IMG/VR virus record: IMGVR_UViG_3300010429_001617
Length of the DNA: 64,000 bases
Source: a virus
Lineage: Duplodnaviria > Caudoviricetes
Reading direction: 5' to 3' (one strand)
This document shows, piece by piece, positions 19,191-49,638 of the stretch (positions within the stretch are counted from its first letter, which is position 1; each line of letters opens with the position of its first letter). The translations under genes and the position numbers were made by a program. Under the pieces are notes generated by a model. The model was not told the DNA's origin. It did no database searches and saw only the letters and a program-made list of their open reading frames with translations.

Positions 19191-21896
19191 TTAAATAGAA
19201 TTAATTATTTTTTCATTAACAAATTCTTTTGATATTAAATATCTGTGTTGTATATCACTGGTGTCACTTTCATCTACTCTTAAAATATTGATTTTCATAC
19301 CTTTATAATAATGGACTTTTGGTGTTCCTCTTAGAGTTATATCCCATCCAGCAGTATTCCATTCAAGTACAGCATTGAGTCCTGTGATTTTTATTATTTT
19401 ATACAATCCTGAATAATCAGAATAACTGACATATCCGCTGTTTGTCGAGCCACTTTGTAGATATAAATTTTCTATATAGACGTAATCGTTTTCATAGAAT
19501 AAATCATCTTTCAAGTCTATTGTTGTGTAGTTTGGATATCCAGCCCACGTTGCCCCAGTTGTCAGCCTATCTATAAATGTGAATATTTCCAAATAATAAG
19601 ATGTGTTGAAAGTTGAGCCAGTTGGATTAACCGAATTATAGCCATCAGGATAAACAAGATCTACAGGCATATCCAATAATGATATTAAATTTTTCTCTGT
19701 TTTTGGAGTTGGTGTTCCATCGTAGTATAAGATATTGATGTTCATTTCATTTGAGTATAAAGCTATATCCGGTCTTATTAATATGTCCACAGATTGTTTG
19801 AAGGTTAAATCATTGTCCAGTGTCACACTTAGAACAAGATCACTATGCTCAATCACCATATCATTTAAAATATTAACTAAAAATCTACCAGATTCTGGAA
19901 CCTCAATCATTTGAGCATAAGATGATTGTGATTGTCCAGACATTGTTAAATTATAGTTAGCTATATCTGTTGTCCTATAAGTATATATTTCGTTATAATC
20001 AACATCAACAGCATCAAAACTTAAAGCCGGATAATTCTTAGTATAATCTATTGATAGTTTAACTGTATCGGAATCAACAAATTGATTCGTCTTATACATC
20101 TTCAAAAGTTGTTCTTGATTTGTTAAACGATTTTTTATGTCATTGATATCTGTTTGTGAATATATTAAACTTTTTAATTTAACTATTTCATCGTTCAAAT
20201 CAATATATTGCCCGATGACAGTGCTGAATTGCTCGGAAAGTAGAACGTAATTACTTAAAACTTTATTATATAAATCAAAACTAAAAGCGTTATATATGGA
20301 TGTTGGATCATATCTCAATGGGAGCATATCATTATCCACTTTGAAATCTAAATTCAAATTATAAATATAAGAATATCCATCCTGCTCTGAGTTTGTAACA
20401 AGTTTTGTGGTCGCTGATATTAAATTGTCATCATCAATTCCAAAATCATTGTCAGGATTATCTAAAAATTGTATGCCATATAAATTGGTATATGTTTTAT
20501 CTATGGTATTATCGTGTATAGTATAGTACCATAAAATAGCATTAAATTCAAAATCTGCCGGCGGCTCTTCGTTGATAGATATAGTATTGAATTCATCAAA
20601 TGTGTTTAATGTGGCACTGGCTGTCAGTGCTTTATAATAATGTTTTAAATTAAAATCTATAGAAAGCCCATCTATATTATCAGAATTGAAATCCGATAAC
20701 TGCTCAAAATAATCATCATTGGCTGTGGCGTAGTTATCTGCTTTTAGGACACCATAATAATCTCCACTATATCTTATAGCGTCACCCGTACTTGTATTAT
20801 ATGTTTTATCATAGGTGTCAAAATATCCAAAATAAGAACCAGGATAATCTTCTGGGTTAGTTCTTATTGGGGATGTCAAATTTTCCGAGCCAATGATTTC
20901 ATCTTGTATCTGCTCATCCAATATAGGTATCTGTAATCCTGGATAATAATTTGTGTTTCTCACGGTTTCGAATAAAACGGATGGAGACTCACCAGCGTGA
21001 GCTGGTATCATCGCCGAAAACTCTGTGAACGTTTGTTGTGAAGCTTTTACTTTACTATTATATTGAACCTCACCTATATATTCAACCAAACGATGATAAT
21101 CTAAATAACATATTCCGTTCCAAGAAGAATCAGTATATTCAGTGGATAAAATTAAAGTTGTTTGTTCGGTCCCAACAGTAACAGATGTTATCTCGTGTGT
21201 TATACCACTTAGCTCGGGTGGTACAGGGGCTAATGTGGCGCCAGTTGAAAACATAATTTCATCTCCGACTTTAAACTTACTATAACTGTTTATTGTCACC
21301 TCGGCATATGTGCCAGAAGACGGATCTATTTCGACCGAACATTCATAATTTCTCACCTCGCGCTCTTTCCATAAATATTTTCTAAAATAATCTGGATTTG
21401 TTATGGTCGAAGCATTTGGATTATCGAACTCTGACATATTTTTATCCCAATCTATTTTATGCTCGGCTGGCTCGAAATCAATAATATTATGTAATCTACA
21501 CCATTTCCAGAAAATCATTTCTGTTGGATTTTTTCTTTCCAGCGGATTATAGAAATCTTTATTTGTGGATATACGAGTTTCACGAAAACAAGCATCTTGA
21601 TTAGCCACATAATTTCTTAATGATTCAATAAGTTTCTCTGAATATTTTACAGGACTAGATGTGTTTGGATCAAAATTATAGGAGCTTATTCCATTTTCAG
21701 GATCCACTGTATCAGTTTTTGTAAAATTTAAAACCTTGCCATCGCTTTTTGGTATATTCAATAAAACAAATTTTGAAATATACATATCATATTGATCTTG
21801 AAACGAATATACGTTAAAGTCATTTGAACTGCTTGGCATGGCATAAAAACTTGTGCCTTTTGATTTCATTCTCTTATAGAGTGGTGTTGATGCCAT
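19191..21896 (-). CDS. Large putative virion structural protein
   Basis: 901 aa, D/N/T/Y-rich, TTAATATATA box at 21923-21932. Confidence 0.55.
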   Translation of the reverse strand: MASTPLYKRMKSKGTSFYAMPSSSNDFNVYSFQDQYDMYISKFVLLNIPKSDGKVLNFTKTDTVDPENGISSYNFDPNTSSPVKYSEKLIESLRNYVANQDACFRETRISTNKDFYNPLERKNPTEMIFWKWCRLHNIIDFEPAEHKIDWDKNMSEFDNPNASTITNPDYFRKYLWKEREVRNYECSVEIDPSSGTYAEVTINSYSKFKVGDEIMFSTGATLAPVPPELSGITHEITSVTVGTEQTTLILSTEYTDSSWNGICYLDYHRLVEYIGEVQYNSKVKASQQTFTEFSAMIPAHAGESPSVLFETVRNTNYYPGLQIPILDEQIQDEIIGSENLTSPIRTNPEDYPGSYFGYFDTYDKTYNTSTGDAIRYSGDYYGVLKADNYATANDDYFEQLSDFNSDNIDGLSIDFNLKHYYKALTASATLNTFDEFNTISINEEPPADFEFNAILWYYTIHDNTIDKTYTNLYGIQFLDNPDNDFGIDDDNLISATTKLVTNSEQDGYSYIYNLNLDFKVDNDMLPLRYDPTSIYNAFSFDLYNKVLSNYVLLSEQFSTVIGQYIDLNDEIVKLKSLIYSQTDINDIKNRLTNQEQLLKMYKTNQFVDSDTVKLSIDYTKNYPALSFDAVDVDYNEIYTYRTTDIANYNLTMSGQSQSSYAQMIEVPESGRFLVNILNDMVIEHSDLVLSVTLDNDLTFKQSVDILIRPDIALYSNEMNINILYYDGTPTPKTEKNLISLLDMPVDLVYPDGYNSVNPTGSTFNTSYYLEIFTFIDRLTTGATWAGYPNYTTIDLKDDLFYENDYVYIENLYLQSGSTNSGYVSYSDYSGLYKIIKITGLNAVLEWNTAGWDITLRGTPKVHYYKGMKINILRVDESDTSDIQHRYLISKEFVNEKIINSI

Positions 21897-21980
21897 AATT
21901 AAATTATTATTTTTTTTTTCATTATATATTAAAATATGAATGTTGTAAAAAATTATTTTAACATTTTAATATATAGATTT

Positions 21981-22733
21981 ATGAAATTCTTGAAAATATA
22001 TGAGCAATTTGAACTGGATGATGATCCTTGGGGTGAAGACTCACCAAGAAAATATACATTTGGAGAGTGGTTTAAGGAAAATTATGGAAATAAAGATCCA
22101 CTGACAATAAAGACAATTGATTGCTATAATAATTCTCTGACCAGTCTCGATGAAATAGAAAACTTGATAAATCTTAGGGAGTTATCTTGTCATCATAATT
22201 CTCTCACCAGTCTCGATGGAATAGAGAACCTGATAAATCTTGAAGAGTTATATTGTTCTAATAATTCTCTCACCAGACTCGATGGAATAGAGAACTTAAT
22301 AAATCTTAAAGTGTTATATTGTTATAATAATTCTCTCACCAGTCTCGATGAAATAGAAAACTTGATAAATCTTAAAGCGTTATCTTGTCATCATAATTCT
22401 CTCACCAGTCTCGATGGAATAGAGAACCTGATAAATCTTGAAGAGTTATATTGTTCTAATAATTCTCTCACCAGACTCGATGGAATAGAGAACTTAATAA
22501 ATCTTAAAGCGTTATCTTGTTCTGATAATTCTCTTGTCAGCCTTGCGGGAATAGAGAACTTAATAAATCTTAAAGTGTTATATTGTTATAATAATTCTCT
22601 CACCAGTCTCGAGGGAATAGAAAACTTAATAAATCTTAAAGTGTTATATTGTCATAATAATTCTTTCTCTGATGAATATAAAGTTCATTTAAAAGATCAT
22701 TGTAAAAAAAGAAATATAAAATTGTACATATGA
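21981..22733 (+). CDS. Leucine-rich-repeat protein (22-aa units) with leader and DDPWGED tag
   Basis: MKFLKIYEQFELDDDPWGED followed by (NNSLTSLDGIENLINLKxLxCx)n; the real start is probably 21981. Confidence 0.9.
   Translation: MKFLKIYEQFELDDDPWGEDSPRKYTFGEWFKENYGNKDPLTIKTIDCYNNSLTSLDEIENLINLRELSCHHNSLTSLDGIENLINLEELYCSNNSLTRLDGIENLINLKVLYCYNNSLTSLDEIENLINLKALSCHHNSLTSLDGIENLINLEELYCSNNSLTRLDGIENLINLKALSCSDNSLVSLAGIENLINLKVLYCYNNSLTSLEGIENLINLKVLYCHNNSFSDEYKVHLKDHCKKRNIKLYI
22122..22667 (+). repeat. Eight near-identical 66-nt coding repeats plus a partial copy, with 198-nt higher-order periodicity
   Basis: Units start at 22122, 22188, 22254 ... 22650; units 2 and 5 are identical. Confidence 0.9.
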
Positions 22734-23509
22734 ATCACCTGAAACTATATGAACAATTTAGATATGGTAGAGAACCAGATCTTCGTAGAATGACAAATAT
22801 TGTTAGATGTGTCAAAAGAAATTATGAGCCATATTTTACACTAAACAGATATTATGACGTTAAAATATGGGGAAATCCACAAAGGGCAATAGAAGAATTT
22901 CATATAAATGATTATATTCCAGTTGAATGCGTTTCAAAAATCAGGATAAAATCAAATAGAAGTGATTCGCTGGAATTAGATTTATCTAAAAAACAAGATT
23001 ATAATTTCTTTTTCGATTACTTTGAGTTAGCTGATGGAAAAAAGATGAAAAGAAAACAAAATTTGGAAGATGACCCTTGGAGCGAAGAAAATTGGGGATA
23101 TGAGGAGATAAAAGAAAATTCACAAAATGGTGTGATATCATATAATACCACAAGACATATGAATGATAATGAATTATTATCATTATTAAAGAAAAAAATT
23201 ATTGGAAGAACCATAGATTTTCACGCTTTATGTGAAACTGGTAGAGGAAAAAATATAATACACTATAGAATTAAAGATATAAGAGATTTTTATGTTAAAG
23301 ATGTTTATATTGGTGACGGCGATTTTATTTTCATAGAAGGCGTCGGCAAATATGATGACGATAAGAAATATGAAGCCAGTTATATTTTGAGTAAGACGGC
23401 AGATATATTTTATTCACTAACGAGCGAAGAAATAGAAAAAAGAAGGCAATTAACAGATTTACATAAAGAAGAAGATCCTTGGGGTGAAGAAAATTGGGAA
23501 ATCAATTAA
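22730..23509 (+). CDS. Two-module protein with leader MNHLKLYEQF and two DPW tags
   Basis: EDDPWSEENWG and EEDPWGEENW. Confidence 0.7.
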   Translation: MNHLKLYEQFRYGREPDLRRMTNIVRCVKRNYEPYFTLNRYYDVKIWGNPQRAIEEFHINDYIPVECVSKIRIKSNRSDSLELDLSKKQDYNFFFDYFELADGKKMKRKQNLEDDPWSEENWGYEEIKENSQNGVISYNTTRHMNDNELLSLLKKKIIGRTIDFHALCETGRGKNIIHYRIKDIRDFYVKDVYIGDGDFIFIEGVGKYDDDKKYEASYILSKTADIFYSLTSEEIEKRRQLTDLHKEEDPWGEENWEIN

Positions 23510-23530
23510 AAAAAATTAAAAAAAAAAAGA

Positions 23531-23917
23531 ATGAAAACAAAATTTGAAAATTTCTTGAACGAGAGTATCTTTGTCGAAAAAGATGATAAAATATTGAGAG
23601 AAATTATATTTATTATCAAAAAATATAATCTGATACCAACATATGAAAGTCAGACAAGATATTATAGAAAGTTTGAATATCTCATAAAGTTGAAAGATAA
23701 GACATTATCAGTTATTTGTGAAAGAGGTGGTTTGGATGACGAGCCTTTTAATGAATATATAATATCTCTAAATAATGAAAAATTAAAGTGCTCTAAATTT
23801 CTGATGTCAAAGATGTGGAGGCTATCAAAACATTTATATGAAAATCAGGATGGTGAAAAAACTAAAAAAGAGATTGATCAAATTGATCAAAAAGAATTGA
23901 TCAAAAGAATAAAATGA
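23531..23917 (+). CDS. Hypothetical protein with leader MKTKFENFLNE
   Basis: 128 aa ORF. Confidence 0.65.
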   Translation: MKTKFENFLNESIFVEKDDKILREIIFIIKKYNLIPTYESQTRYYRKFEYLIKLKDKTLSVICERGGLDDEPFNEYIISLNNEKLKCSKFLMSKMWRLSKHLYENQDGEKTKKEIDQIDQKELIKRIK

Positions 23918-24927
23918 TTATTGATTTTATAACATATATTAACGAACAAATTGAGGATGATAGAAAATACTACATCTATACATTATCGGATCCGATTGAT
24001 GGTGAAGTAAAATATGTTGGCAAGACAAAGGATTTAAAGGATAGGATGTGGAGACATATGGAGCCATCAAATTTAAAAAATGCTTGGACATCTAAAACAA
24101 AATGGATTTTATGGCTTAAAAAACAGGGACTAAAACCAATAATGGATATTTTAGATGAAGGAGATGCCAATAATATAAATGATTTGGAAAGATATTGGAT
24201 ATCTCAAATAAAAACGTGGGGGTATAGATTAAAGAATGACACAAGTGGTGGGCAAGGCGCAGATTATTGGAAAGGAAAAAAATTGTCAAACGAACATAAA
24301 TTGAAAGTGAAAATGAACAATCCTTTGAGAAAAGATATTTGTGAATATGAAATAGGAACAGATAAATTATTGGCTGAATATATATCTGTTCGTGAAGCTA
24401 GTAAAAAAACTGGACATACTGAGTATGCGATCATAAGTAGTTGTAAAGGATTATCAACGCCGGATAAATTTGGTGTCTATTGGAGATATAAAGATAATTA
24501 TTTTCCATATGAAGCTAGAGATTTGAAACCAAGTGAGGAAACTATTCAAAAAATAAAATTAAAACAACATAGAAATAATATTTGTCAGTATGAAATTGGA
24601 ACAGATAGATTATTATCGACATATGAATCGAGTTATGATGCCGAAAGAATAACTGGAATAAATAGATCCCACATAATGAAATGCTGTAGAGGAATAAAAA
24701 ATTATAACTCTGTTGGTGGATATTACTGGAGATTTGAAGATAATTATTTTCCATATGAACCACCAGCAAATAGACCCATAAAAATAGAACAATATGATAA
24801 AAATGGAAATTTAATTAAAATATATAACTCTACATACGAGTTGAGAAAAGAATTAAAAATAGATTTTAGAGCCATAATTAAAAATAATTATGATTATCTT
24901 GGATATGATTGGAAAATTAAAAAATAA
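23914..24927 (+). CDS. GIY-YIG homing endonuclease with NUMOD1-type repeats
   Basis: YIYTL...KYVGKT...R...ERYWI...LKN; three ICxY/IEQY...Y.S..EA repeats. Confidence 0.85.
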   Translation: MIIDFITYINEQIEDDRKYYIYTLSDPIDGEVKYVGKTKDLKDRMWRHMEPSNLKNAWTSKTKWILWLKKQGLKPIMDILDEGDANNINDLERYWISQIKTWGYRLKNDTSGGQGADYWKGKKLSNEHKLKVKMNNPLRKDICEYEIGTDKLLAEYISVREASKKTGHTEYAIISSCKGLSTPDKFGVYWRYKDNYFPYEARDLKPSEETIQKIKLKQHRNNICQYEIGTDRLLSTYESSYDAERITGINRSHIMKCCRGIKNYNSVGGYYWRFEDNYFPYEPPANRPIKIEQYDKNGNLIKIYNSTYELRKELKIDFRAIIKNNYDYLGYDWKIKK

Positions 24928-24939
24928 ATAAATAAAAAC

Positions 24940-26541
24940 ATGAAAAAAATGAATTTAATAAATTTAACGGAATTTGATAAATTTGTCGAAATGATGAACG
25001 AAAGCGTAAGTGGTTCAGTACGAAGCCGTTTTGCCCCTTCGCCTACAGGCGCACTTCACCTTGGGGGGGTGCGAACCGCGTTATATAATTATCTTTTCGC
25101 AAAAAAACATAATGGTGTGTTTTATTTAAGAATTGAGGATACTGATCAGGTTCGTTTTGTGCCAGGCGCCGAAGAATATATTAGAAAGTCTTTAGAGTGG
25201 TGTGGAATTTCACCGGATGAATCTCCTTGGCAGGGTGGGCCTTACGGTCCTTATCGTCAATCAGAAAGATATGACATATATCCAAAATATGCTAAAGAAT
25301 TAGTGGATAAGGGTAAAGCCTATTATTGTTTTGACACACCAGATGATATAGAAAATATGAAATCTAAACTCTTAGAACAGGGAGTTGCTTCACCTCAATA
25401 TGATGCTAACACCAGAATGATGATGAAAAATTCTCTAACTCTTTCAGCAGATGAAGTTCAACATTTATTGGATTCAAAAGCTCCTTTTGTCATTAGAATA
25501 AAGTTTCCAGAAGACACACAAATAGTTGTTAATGATATAATTAGAGGAACTGTTGTTGCCAACACAAACACATTGGATGATAAAGTTTTATTCAAATCAG
25601 ACGGACTACCTACTTATCACTTGGCTAATGTTGTTGATGATCATTTAATGAAAACATCGCACGTTATACGTGGAGAAGAGTGGTTGCCAAGTGCTCCGCT
25701 TCATTTCTTTTTATATGAGGCATTCGGTTGGGATACACCAGAATTTGCTCATCTTTCATTAATATTGAAACCAAGTGGGGCTGGAAAATTGAGTAAAAGA
25801 GATGGGGACGCTTTAGGATTTCCAGTTTTTCCTTTAAAGTGGACGGATCCTAAAAATCCAGATGCCACATCAAAAGGATATAAAGACAGCGGTTATTTGC
25901 CTGAAGCTTTCATAAATATGTTGGCTTTTCTTGGTTGGAATCCAGGAACAGAGCAAGAAGTTATGACAATGGACGAGCTCATACAATCTTTTTCATTAGA
26001 AAGATGTGGTAAAGCTGGAGCTCGTTTTAATATAGAAAAAACGAAATGGTATAACGGACAATATATTAGAAAAATGTCTGATGAAGAGGTTTTTGATGAA
26101 TTAAAAAAATCACTGGATGAAAGAGGAATAGATTTACCAGATGGAACTATAAAGAAAATGATAGAAATGAATAAGGGTAAAGTTAATTTTGTTTCAGATA
26201 TATATGAAGCTTCTTTATATTTATTTGAAAAACCAGAAACATATGATAAGAAAACTGTCGAGAAGAAATGGACAGAAAAAAGCCCTGAGGTAATTTCTAA
26301 TTTGAGAGAAGTTTTAGAAGGTGTCCACGATTGGTCAGGTGAAAATATTCAAAGAGCATTTGAAAAATATGTTAATGAAAATCCTGATTTGAATTTTGGT
26401 ATGGTTGCTCCGGCATTGAGACTTGTTTTAACTGGTATGGGTAATGGTCCATCACTATTTGATATTATGGAAATCATCGGTAAAGAAGAAACGTTAAATA
26501 GAATGACAAATTATAATATACAAGTTAAAAAGAAAAAATAG
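24940..26541 (+). CDS. gltX: Glutamyl-tRNA synthetase, Bacteroidota-type, with an N-terminal extension
   Basis: RFAPSPTGALHLGG, LRIEDTD, HVIRGEEW, KLSKRDGDALGFPVFPL. Confidence 0.97.
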   Translation: MKKMNLINLTEFDKFVEMMNESVSGSVRSRFAPSPTGALHLGGVRTALYNYLFAKKHNGVFYLRIEDTDQVRFVPGAEEYIRKSLEWCGISPDESPWQGGPYGPYRQSERYDIYPKYAKELVDKGKAYYCFDTPDDIENMKSKLLEQGVASPQYDANTRMMMKNSLTLSADEVQHLLDSKAPFVIRIKFPEDTQIVVNDIIRGTVVANTNTLDDKVLFKSDGLPTYHLANVVDDHLMKTSHVIRGEEWLPSAPLHFFLYEAFGWDTPEFAHLSLILKPSGAGKLSKRDGDALGFPVFPLKWTDPKNPDATSKGYKDSGYLPEAFINMLAFLGWNPGTEQEVMTMDELIQSFSLERCGKAGARFNIEKTKWYNGQYIRKMSDEEVFDELKKSLDERGIDLPDGTIKKMIEMNKGKVNFVSDIYEASLYLFEKPETYDKKTVEKKWTEKSPEVISNLREVLEGVHDWSGENIQRAFEKYVNENPDLNFGMVAPALRLVLTGMGNGPSLFDIMEIIGKEETLNRMTNYNIQVKKKK

Positions 26542-26542
26542 T

Positions 26543-26673
26543 ATGAAGTATATAAAATTATACGAGCAAAAGATTTTGAAAATGATTCCTGGGGAGAGGA
26601 TACACCTCGTGAAAATAGTTTAATAGACATACTTAGAATGATATTTTATGGCATTCATATTTTTTTAATTTAA
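26543..26673 (+). pseudogene. Frameshifted remnant of a leader-plus-tag gene resembling the LRR gene start
   Basis: MKYIKLYEQ, then in the -1 frame DFENDSWGEDTPR (compare MKFLKIYEQFELDDDPWGEDSPR). Confidence 0.55.
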
Positions 26674-30759: not shown

Positions 30760-31134
30760 ATGAAAACATATTTAGAATTTTTAAATGAACAAGCCGCTCC
30801 AGCACCCGCTCCAGCACCCGCTCCAGCACCCGCTCCAGCACCCGCTCCAGCACCCGCTCCAGCACCCGCTCCAGCACCCGATCCAGCACCGCCCGCTCCA
30901 GCCACACAAATCCCAAAAAGAACAACTTCTTATGGTGGGAATTTAGCGAGAGCTAATGATGATAAGGTTCATGAAATAATATATAAATTAACACCTCAAA
31001 CAAAAACTGATCTTCAAAATGTTTATAAGAAAGTATTAGACGAAATCCATAAGACATTTAAAGATGATCCATCTATGACTACAAGAGATATTGCAACTGC
31101 TGTAGGAAGTATAATGTATAATCAGCAGGGATAA
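30760..31134 (+). CDS. Pro-Ala linker protein with leader MKTYLEFLNE; putative internal head protein
   Basis: Leader is close to the T4 internal-protein CTS MKTYQEFIAE; TTAATATATA at 30730-30739. Confidence 0.75.
   Translation: MKTYLEFLNEQAAPAPAPAPAPAPAPAPAPAPAPAPAPAPDPAPPAPATQIPKRTTSYGGNLARANDDKVHEIIYKLTPQTKTDLQNVYKKVLDEIHKTFKDDPSMTTRDIATAVGSIMYNQQG
30794..30889 (+). repeat. 12-nt tandem repeat ccgctccagcac x8 (last copy has one mismatch), encoding (PA)n
   Basis: Read directly from the sequence. Confidence 0.95.
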
Positions 31135-48615: not shown

Positions 48616-49638
48616 ATGGAAGAACTCAAAAATTTAAAAAATTTCGGTGAATTTAAAGATTCTTTAAATGAAGAACTTTTATGGGGGGCAATTAAAAATC
48701 TTTTCAACAAATTATTTAGTAATATGGATAAAAAACTCGCTGATCAAGTAAATAATTTCACAAAAAAAATTGACGCGGCTAAAACTTGGGACGAATCTGT
48801 TAGGGCATTTGAAGCTGATATGGCGTCTATGAAAACAAAAGTTGAAACAAATGTGAATGCTGCAACAGGTCTATTGGGATTCAGAAAAGCATTGGCAGAT
48901 CTTAGTGAAGCTCTTTTTGTTGAATTACAAGTCTTATCAAATAAATATCAAGTGCCAGAATTAACCGCAGCTAAAGTTTTTGCAGGGACACCGGAAGCTG
49001 AAATGTTTAACAAAAAAAATTCAGAAGAATTTAAAACAAGCCTTGTGACGCCATTAAATGCTAAAATAATAGAATTAAATAAAACTGGAGCAGCTGGATA
49101 TGATGAAGTAGCTTTGAAAACTTATCTAGACGCACAAAATAATATAGATGCAACAGAACAAGCGACAACTGGCGGAGGATCCCCAGTTAATGCGAGTCAC
49201 CTTTATCAGTCGCCAAATAAATTATTTGAGGCGACACCTGTACCATCGACGCCAGCAACGCCAGCAACTCCAGCGGAGCCAGCAACTCCAGCGGATCCAG
49301 CAACTCCAGCGGCGCCAGCAACAGGGACTCCACCTCAAGGTGACATAACAAAATTAAAGGCGCCAGCAATAAAATGGATTACTGAAAATTTATCAGGTAT
49401 AGCTTTAAAGAAAGTTAAAGAAGTTCAAAAACCAAAAGGAAATGCCGCCACTGATCCATTTGATCAGGCAGCTTTAAATACAAAAGCGACAGGTAATACA
49501 CAAAACTTAGCAAAATTGCTCAGAAACATAGTTCAATTACCGACAGCTGCTGATCTAGCTAAAGTGAGAGATAATTTGGCTACTTTGGGTAAAAACCGAG
49601 AAAATCCAACTTTTAAAGATGATATTGGAAAATTTTAA
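48616..49638 (+). CDS. Ala-rich protein with leader KNLKNFGEFKDSLNEE and PAT repeats
   Basis: 340 aa; ccagcaactccagcgg-type repeats near 49250-49320. Confidence 0.7.
   Translation: MEELKNLKNFGEFKDSLNEELLWGAIKNLFNKLFSNMDKKLADQVNNFTKKIDAAKTWDESVRAFEADMASMKTKVETNVNAATGLLGFRKALADLSEALFVELQVLSNKYQVPELTAAKVFAGTPEAEMFNKKNSEEFKTSLVTPLNAKIIELNKTGAAGYDEVALKTYLDAQNNIDATEQATTGGGSPVNASHLYQSPNKLFEATPVPSTPATPATPAEPATPADPATPAAPATGTPPQGDITKLKAPAIKWITENLSGIALKKVKEVQKPKGNAATDPFDQAALNTKATGNTQNLAKLLRNIVQLPTAADLAKVRDNLATLGKNRENPTFKDDIGKF

Follow-up and report, generated by a model that had tools for sequence, protein, structure and literature searches.

Why would a phage glutamyl-tRNA synthetase (GluRS) begin with about twenty residues that are not present in cellular GltX? 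The question is raised by the gltX gene at positions 24940-26541 (+ strand) of a 64-kb stretch of phage DNA, hereafter the window. The window has a G+C content of about 29%. It encodes a gp5-like baseplate hub that includes a muramidase domain, two tRNA-Val genes and many ORFs without a family match. Its closest database record is LR756501, a 735 kb sequence described as 'uncultured phage'. The two GluRS are 74% identical over residues 1-524. According to Al-Shayeb et al. 2020 (PMC7162821), LR756501 originates from that study and belongs to the Mahaphage clade, with Bacteroidetes as predicted host. The window itself being 64 kb long, the full LR756501 genome was used as a stand-in for the phage it comes from. 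To our knowledge, the clade of phages with a leader-bearing GluRS has no cultured member.

Judging from its full-length family match and its class I signatures, the ORF is an intact GluRS of the bacterial type. It has 533 codons plus a stop and matches TIGR00464 with 476.2 bits (curated cut-off 289.95), residues 27-524 covering positions 2-465 of the 470 in the model. Pfam identifies the catalytic domain (PF00749, residues 27-370) and the anticodon-binding domain (PF19269, residues 401-523). The HIGH-type signature is H-L-G-G (residues 40-43, 25057-25068, + strand) and the KMSKS-type loop is KLSKR (residues 283-287, 25786-25800, + strand). H40, G42 and G43, as well as K283 to R287, are invariant in an alignment of 46 GluRS homologues (A3). 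The AlphaFold (AF2) model has a mean pLDDT of 89.9. From the family and the intact motifs, the enzyme is predicted to charge tRNA-Glu. LR756501 contains three ordinary tRNA-Glu genes and a single PF00749 gene. The nearest solved structure is 6b1z, a Flavobacteriales GltX (589 bits, residues 26-523), which also has all the catalytic signatures. Cellular Flavobacteriales GltX differs from the window protein at both ends, having neither the 21-residue leader nor a short Lys-rich C-terminal tail (26509-26538, + strand). This tail belongs to the consensus of the phage clade (A4), in which K526 is nearly invariant. It has a low pLDDT and the alignment with 6b1z stops at residue 523. The tail was seen in phage-clade GluRS only and cellular homologues are devoid of it.

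The leader corresponds to the first 21 codons of the gene (24940-25002, + strand). In the window protein, 29 residues precede the R-F-A-P-S-P-T-G strand, as compared to 5-8 in cellular GltX from Flavobacteriales/Cryomorphaceae, which makes 21 extra residues. The leader has the shape L-x-N-L-x-x-F-x-x-F, followed by a 3-residue spacer and by M-N-E. Its occurrence was surveyed in the best 120 database matches. Among these, 58 metagenomic sequences carry the leader, and 62 are leaderless and of cellular type, including sequences named Cryomorphaceae, Cryomorpha and Halocola. In a tree calculated on leader-trimmed GluRS, all 58 tagged sequences fall in one clade (support 0.999) and the 62 leaderless ones lie outside. 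For three of the 58, the source contigs were identified; they are phage-like, one being 616 kb long, and adjoining genes there carry the same tag. The leader persists while the enzyme core diverges down to about 58% identity. The original prediction, made from the window sequence, held that about 21 residues precede the normal GluRS start, and the comparison with cellular homologues bears it out. We consider it confirmed by these sequence comparisons that the extension is real and phage-specific. In the AF2 model, residues 1-20 have pLDDT values of 46-52, and residues 10-19 form a short helix. The leader is thus modelled as a flexible helix appended to a confident enzyme core. The leader is not common to phage synthetases at large, since the three other aminoacyl-tRNA synthetase-like genes of LR756501 have no tag and start straight at their catalytic cores. 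The GluRS of LR756502, a related Mahaphage, has no leader. That of LR756504 has a canonical core followed by a longer linker.

An artefact of annotation was considered, with translation beginning at the Met-Met pair of codons 18-19. Such a start would yield an N-terminus of near-normal length, and one homologue (P0032) is indeed called from this position in the database. However, no methionine occurs in homologue P0027 between residue 1 and the enzyme core, and P0022 lacks one where the window protein has its Met-Met pair, so that the downstream pair cannot be a general start. Leader residues 5-17 are also among the best-conserved positions of the clade, with L6, F12 and F15 invariant (A4). 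The closest relative, P0002, has an isoleucine at position 4, which designates Met1 as the conserved start. In addition, the reading frame opens directly after the upstream stop in both the window (12 nt past it) and LR756501. The downstream start, which the original prediction had named as one of the findings that would overturn it, was therefore rejected on these comparative grounds, and we regard it as extremely improbable.

All 58 GluRS leaders end with aliphatic-x-Glu. The antepenultimate residue (P3) is M in 28 cases, L in 23, I in 6 and V in 1, and the last residue (P1) is always Glu. The next residue is Ser, Asn or Gly in all 58. The prohead protease of T4 cleaves after L/I-x-E, a specificity that agrees with the T4 N-termini inspected. 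From the comparison of leader ends, a protease site is predicted in the window protein between Glu21 and Ser22 (25000-25005, + strand), with Met at P3 and Glu at P1. In most of the sequences, a cut after the leader Glu would leave 8 residues ahead of the first strand, which is the length of the N-terminus in cellular GltX.

The leader of GluRS is not isolated. Four tightly packed genes with leader-like N-termini are located immediately upstream (21981-24927, + strand), as seen from ORF calls, N-termini and Pfam matches. One encodes an LRR protein and another (23914-24927) a homing endonuclease of the GIY-YIG/NUMOD type, while the products of the other two match no family. Starts in this run are at 21981, 22730, 23531, 23914 and 24940. 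Gaps or overlaps between the genes do not exceed 12 nt, which suggests one transcription unit including gltX. Downstream of gltX, translation shows what is left of another leader-bearing gene, 26 codons closed by stop codons (26543-26620, + strand). gltX is thus the last intact gene of a leader-bearing run, as originally predicted. In all, the window contains about 10 tagged genes, the four upstream of gltX included. In a distant relative (L051:3512-4369), a GIY-YIG/NUMOD endonuclease gene also stands directly upstream of gltX, without a leader-like N-terminus. In LR756501, another GIY-YIG gene adjoins a LeuRS-like gene (191952-194245). Many small proteins of the window (17384-23509) and of L001 (2810-7961) share a D-P-[WY]-G-E-E-x-W motif, often found a few residues past the leader.

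In order to count the tag, we used a strict core, aromatic-x-x-aromatic-aliphatic-[N/K/Q]-Glu, and the 953 called ORFs of LR756501. The core occurs at 56 sites in this proteome, 45 of which are within the first 15 residues of a protein (0.7-1.1 expected). The 11 internal sites correspond to the chance rate (9.3 expected). N-terminal enrichment extends to variants of the core that have 1-3 spacer residues, and GluRS carries the long form, with a 3-residue spacer. The long-form prefix, L-x-N-aliphatic-x-x-aromatic-x-x-aromatic, starts nine LR756501 ORFs (0.29 expected) and the window ORF at 48616. Altogether, about 66-70 ORFs of LR756501 are tagged, that is about 7% of its genes. A Pfam scan of 59 of the tagged proteins left most of them without a family, the exceptions being a PPK2, a methyltransferase, a nucleotidyltransferase and a DUF7919 protein. 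No capsid, tail or replication protein was found among these 59. The conserved positions of the tag are encoded by many different codons and substitutions stay within chemical classes (F/Y, I/L/V, N/K), which argues for selection on the peptide and not on the RNA. From these counts, the tag is a short, strictly N-terminal peptide common to unrelated phage proteins. No leader-type tag was found in the first 50 kb of Tenacibaculum phage PTm1, a cultured relative with a related protease.

The upstream regions of genes in LR756501 and in the window were also compared. An ATATATA motif peaks 11-30 nt ahead of start codons, an interval that takes up 179 of the 297 copies lying within 120 nt. It probably represents the -10-like element of a single class of promoters. 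Tagged genes have it about twice as often, in 30 of 66 cases as against 188 of 887 for the others (p=2e-5, uncorrected for the many 7-mers tested). The motif is also found ahead of the portal, protease-scaffold and capsid genes. This pattern fits with late co-expression of the tagged and head genes. No ATATATA motif stands directly ahead of the window gltX itself. The T4 late promoter TATAAATA is not enriched ahead of the tagged genes of LR756501, being present in 3% of both sets.

LR756501 has head genes of the T4 type, with a portal (PF07230, 236 bits) and a capsid protein (PF07068, 83 bits). Between the two lies an ORF of 807 residues (LR756501 73913-76336; L009:13913-16336) in which a gp21-type prohead protease is fused to repeats. 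The N-terminal domain shows 26% identity with T4 gp21 over 149 residues (E=4e-7), and the catalytic His and Ser motifs are matched. The ORF has 1608 metagenome homologues, many with a precomputed Peptidase_S77 match. With the N-domain as query, tblastn retrieved 750 records from phages. Some of these carry the annotation prohead protease, or 'prohead core scaffolding protein and protease'. A phmmer search of the protease domain against solved structures gave nothing at E<=1. After the protease domain come 14 tandem repeats of 14 residues, a Q/P-rich linker and a C-terminal domain. Each of the 14 repeats contains a core aromatic-x-x-aromatic-I/L/V-x-Glu and most end with IAE. They account for 14 of the 70 internal sites of aromatic-x-x-aromatic-I/L/V-x-E in LR756501. 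The repeats are conserved in the 120 fusion homologues compared, with a median of 14 per protein. The fusion looks like a hallmark of this group of huge phages. Because the repeats share the core of the leader and the same T4-type cut site, the leader looks like one unit of the scaffold repeat. A complex prediction with scaffold repeats (A5 residues 290-500) and the LR756501 GluRS (A4) gave a score of 0.00 and carries no weight either way. The N-terminus of the LR756501 capsid protein aligns weakly with the propeptide of T4 gp23 (E=0.02), so that its putative M-N-E cut site is only a suggestion. The gp21-type protease and the scaffold are present in LR756501, the genome with 74% GluRS identity; for the phage of the window, the search covered 64 kb. 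A second, weak Peptidase_S77 match (23.6 bits) was found in LR756501 in a 178-residue ORF (11314-11850, - strand). This ORF may encode a paralogue that has diverged from the prohead protease, as reported for SPN3US.

Taken together, these observations lead us to propose, at roughly even odds, that GluRS begins with a capsid-targeting propeptide like those of T4 and that the enzyme is packaged, cut and delivered with the DNA. The gene would have been taken from a Flavobacteriales-like host lineage, and a T4-type propeptide of 21 residues would have been grafted onto it. GluRS would be made late, alongside the other tagged proteins. Its amphipathic leader (aromatic-x-x-aromatic ... aliphatic-x-Glu) would dock the enzyme to a prohead scaffold core made of repeats of like shape. 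The gp21-type prohead protease would then cut after Glu21, giving a GluRS with an N-terminus of native length. The cut enzyme would stay in the head and enter the next cell with the DNA, where it could charge phage or host tRNA-Glu ahead of any phage gene expression. Docking, cleavage, packaging, injection and benefit are all deduced here from sequence. The original prediction had called the leader packaging-type, and this idea now has circumstantial support from the N-terminal tag family, the T4-type protease motif and, in the relative, the head genes and leader-like repeats. More tentatively, with clearly less than an even chance, a clade of huge phages of Bacteroidota might use an expanded T4-like tag to load a working synthetase together with dozens of other tagged proteins and inject them with the genome, the tag mimicking a scaffold repeat. 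Some of the translation machinery would then reach the new cell ready-made.

Targeting tags of the T4 type are textbook knowledge. In T4 (IPI-III, Alt, gp24) as in the phages studied here, short N-terminal peptides aromatic-x-x-aromatic-aliphatic-x-Glu are carried by unrelated proteins and end in a protease motif, and both T4 and LR756501 have T4-type portal, capsid and gp21-type protease genes. The tagged set resembles Alt and T4's internal proteins in that it groups unrelated proteins and has no capsid, tail or replication members. Alt, an enzyme of 682 residues, provides a precedent for a cargo of the size of GluRS. There are also differences. About 70 genes per genome carry the tag here, but a handful do so in T4. 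At P2, Asn or Lys is the usual residue, whereas it is Ala in T4, where the capsid-targeting sequence is a 10-residue peptide ending with I-A-E (10.1101/2021.01.19.427310). In GluRS, the leader departs from the canonical short tag in being a 21-residue long form that includes a 3-residue spacer and in having Met at P3. Unlike in T4, the protease is fused to the repeat scaffold, and packaging is a prediction here. Giant phages of the phiKZ/SPN3US type offer a second comparison, since many of their head-internal proteins have N-terminal propeptides removed by a gp21-related protease (PMC5694885). These propeptides, however, are 80 to more than 100 residues long and cut at A/S/G-x-E (PMC5694885), whereas the present tag has 10-21 residues and is of the T4 type. 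In the window, the start of a small ORF (30760-31134, + strand) nearly reproduces the T4 targeting peptide, 7 of 10 residues being identical, and a long Ala-Pro dipeptide repeat comes directly after it.

Translation genes of huge phages have been assumed to act only once expressed. In the parts of Al-Shayeb et al. 2020 (PMC7162821) that deal with huge-phage GluRS, synthetases are proposed only to charge phage tRNAs, the phage GluRS genes nest near Bacteroidetes sequences (Extended Data Fig. 7), and neither an N-terminal leader nor a link to head assembly is mentioned. Two things appear to be new here. A tRNA synthetase carries the tag, in a conserved and monophyletic way, and the tag matches the protease-scaffold repeats. 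From a narrow literature search, we know of no tRNA synthetase described as a phage virion protein. If our proposal is true, a virion-delivered synthetase would mean that takeover of translation starts at injection. As far as we know, how T4-type targeting signals are recognized is still unclear, even for T4. The leader-repeat match suggests a testable rule for this recognition. The tag would also supply a sequence rule by which candidates for injected proteins could be listed in uncultured huge phages; in LR756501, the list has about 66 ORFs.

Two other readings of the leader keep the enzyme in the cell that makes it or deny the peptide a role. In one, which we see as possible but rather unlikely, the tagged proteins share the leader as an N-terminal handle or address with another purpose, such as recruitment to a non-capsid structure or factory, marking for a modifying enzyme or timed proteolysis, and GluRS acts only in the producing cell. 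The breadth of the tag speaks for it. About 7% of the genes carry the tag, including a homing endonuclease, the PPK2 and the methyltransferase, for which there is no obvious need for injection, and a tag so much commoner than in T4 may serve another use of a shared handle. Nevertheless, a non-capsid handle leaves unexplained why every leader ends with a T4-type protease motif, why the cut restores a native-length N-terminus, and why the prohead protease-scaffold fusion is the only protein rich in internal cores. In the other reading, the leader would have no role in the protein and would be a translation-initiation feature, or a conserved DNA block promoting recombinational shuffling of genes. 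The genome is AT-rich, without obvious Shine-Dalgarno sites, and the tagged genes are clustered, as might be expected in this case. The varied codons and class-wise substitutions described above point instead to selection on the peptide, and the GluRS leaders of the window and of LR756501 differ at synonymous positions. Moreover, most genes, those for capsid and portal included, have no tag, and GluRS retains the leader even where core identity has fallen to about 58%. We therefore find this second reading quite improbable. A capsid-targeting propeptide remains the explanation that we prefer.

For a packaged GluRS, the original prediction had suggested a more specific benefit. The injected enzyme would serve to defeat kinase toxins of the HipA type, possibly together with a tRNA-Glu-like RNA encoded at 12571-12653 (- strand). 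The target serine of HipA in E. coli GltX, Ser239, is presumably the serine within the KLSKR-type loop. The proposal has some basis, as HipA does inactivate GltX by phosphorylating this conserved residue (PMC6581861), and the window does contain a tRNA-like RNA (Rfam tRNA, 37.5 bits, threshold 29). The acceptor, D and T arms of this RNA are similar to their counterparts in the LR756501 tRNA-Glu genes. However, the KLSKR serine does not vary within the phage clade, so that nothing suggests resistance to HipA, and we found no HipA link for the window GluRS. The recognition of tRNA by GluRS includes anticodon bases. The RNA is aberrant, with a 19-nt insertion in the D-loop and almost no anticodon loop, and it is located 12 kb from gltX on the other strand. 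The three ordinary tRNA-Glu genes of LR756501 are simpler substrates. Nothing ties the tRNA-like RNA to the window GluRS, and the HipA rationale is unsupported by these data; the combined proposal seems very doubtful to us. The tRNA set of LR756501 has another particularity. At about 690.6 kb (L040:10585-10738), two adjoining tRNA genes have the anticodon CUA of amber suppressors, a pair that hints at read-through or recoding of TAG during part of the infection cycle.
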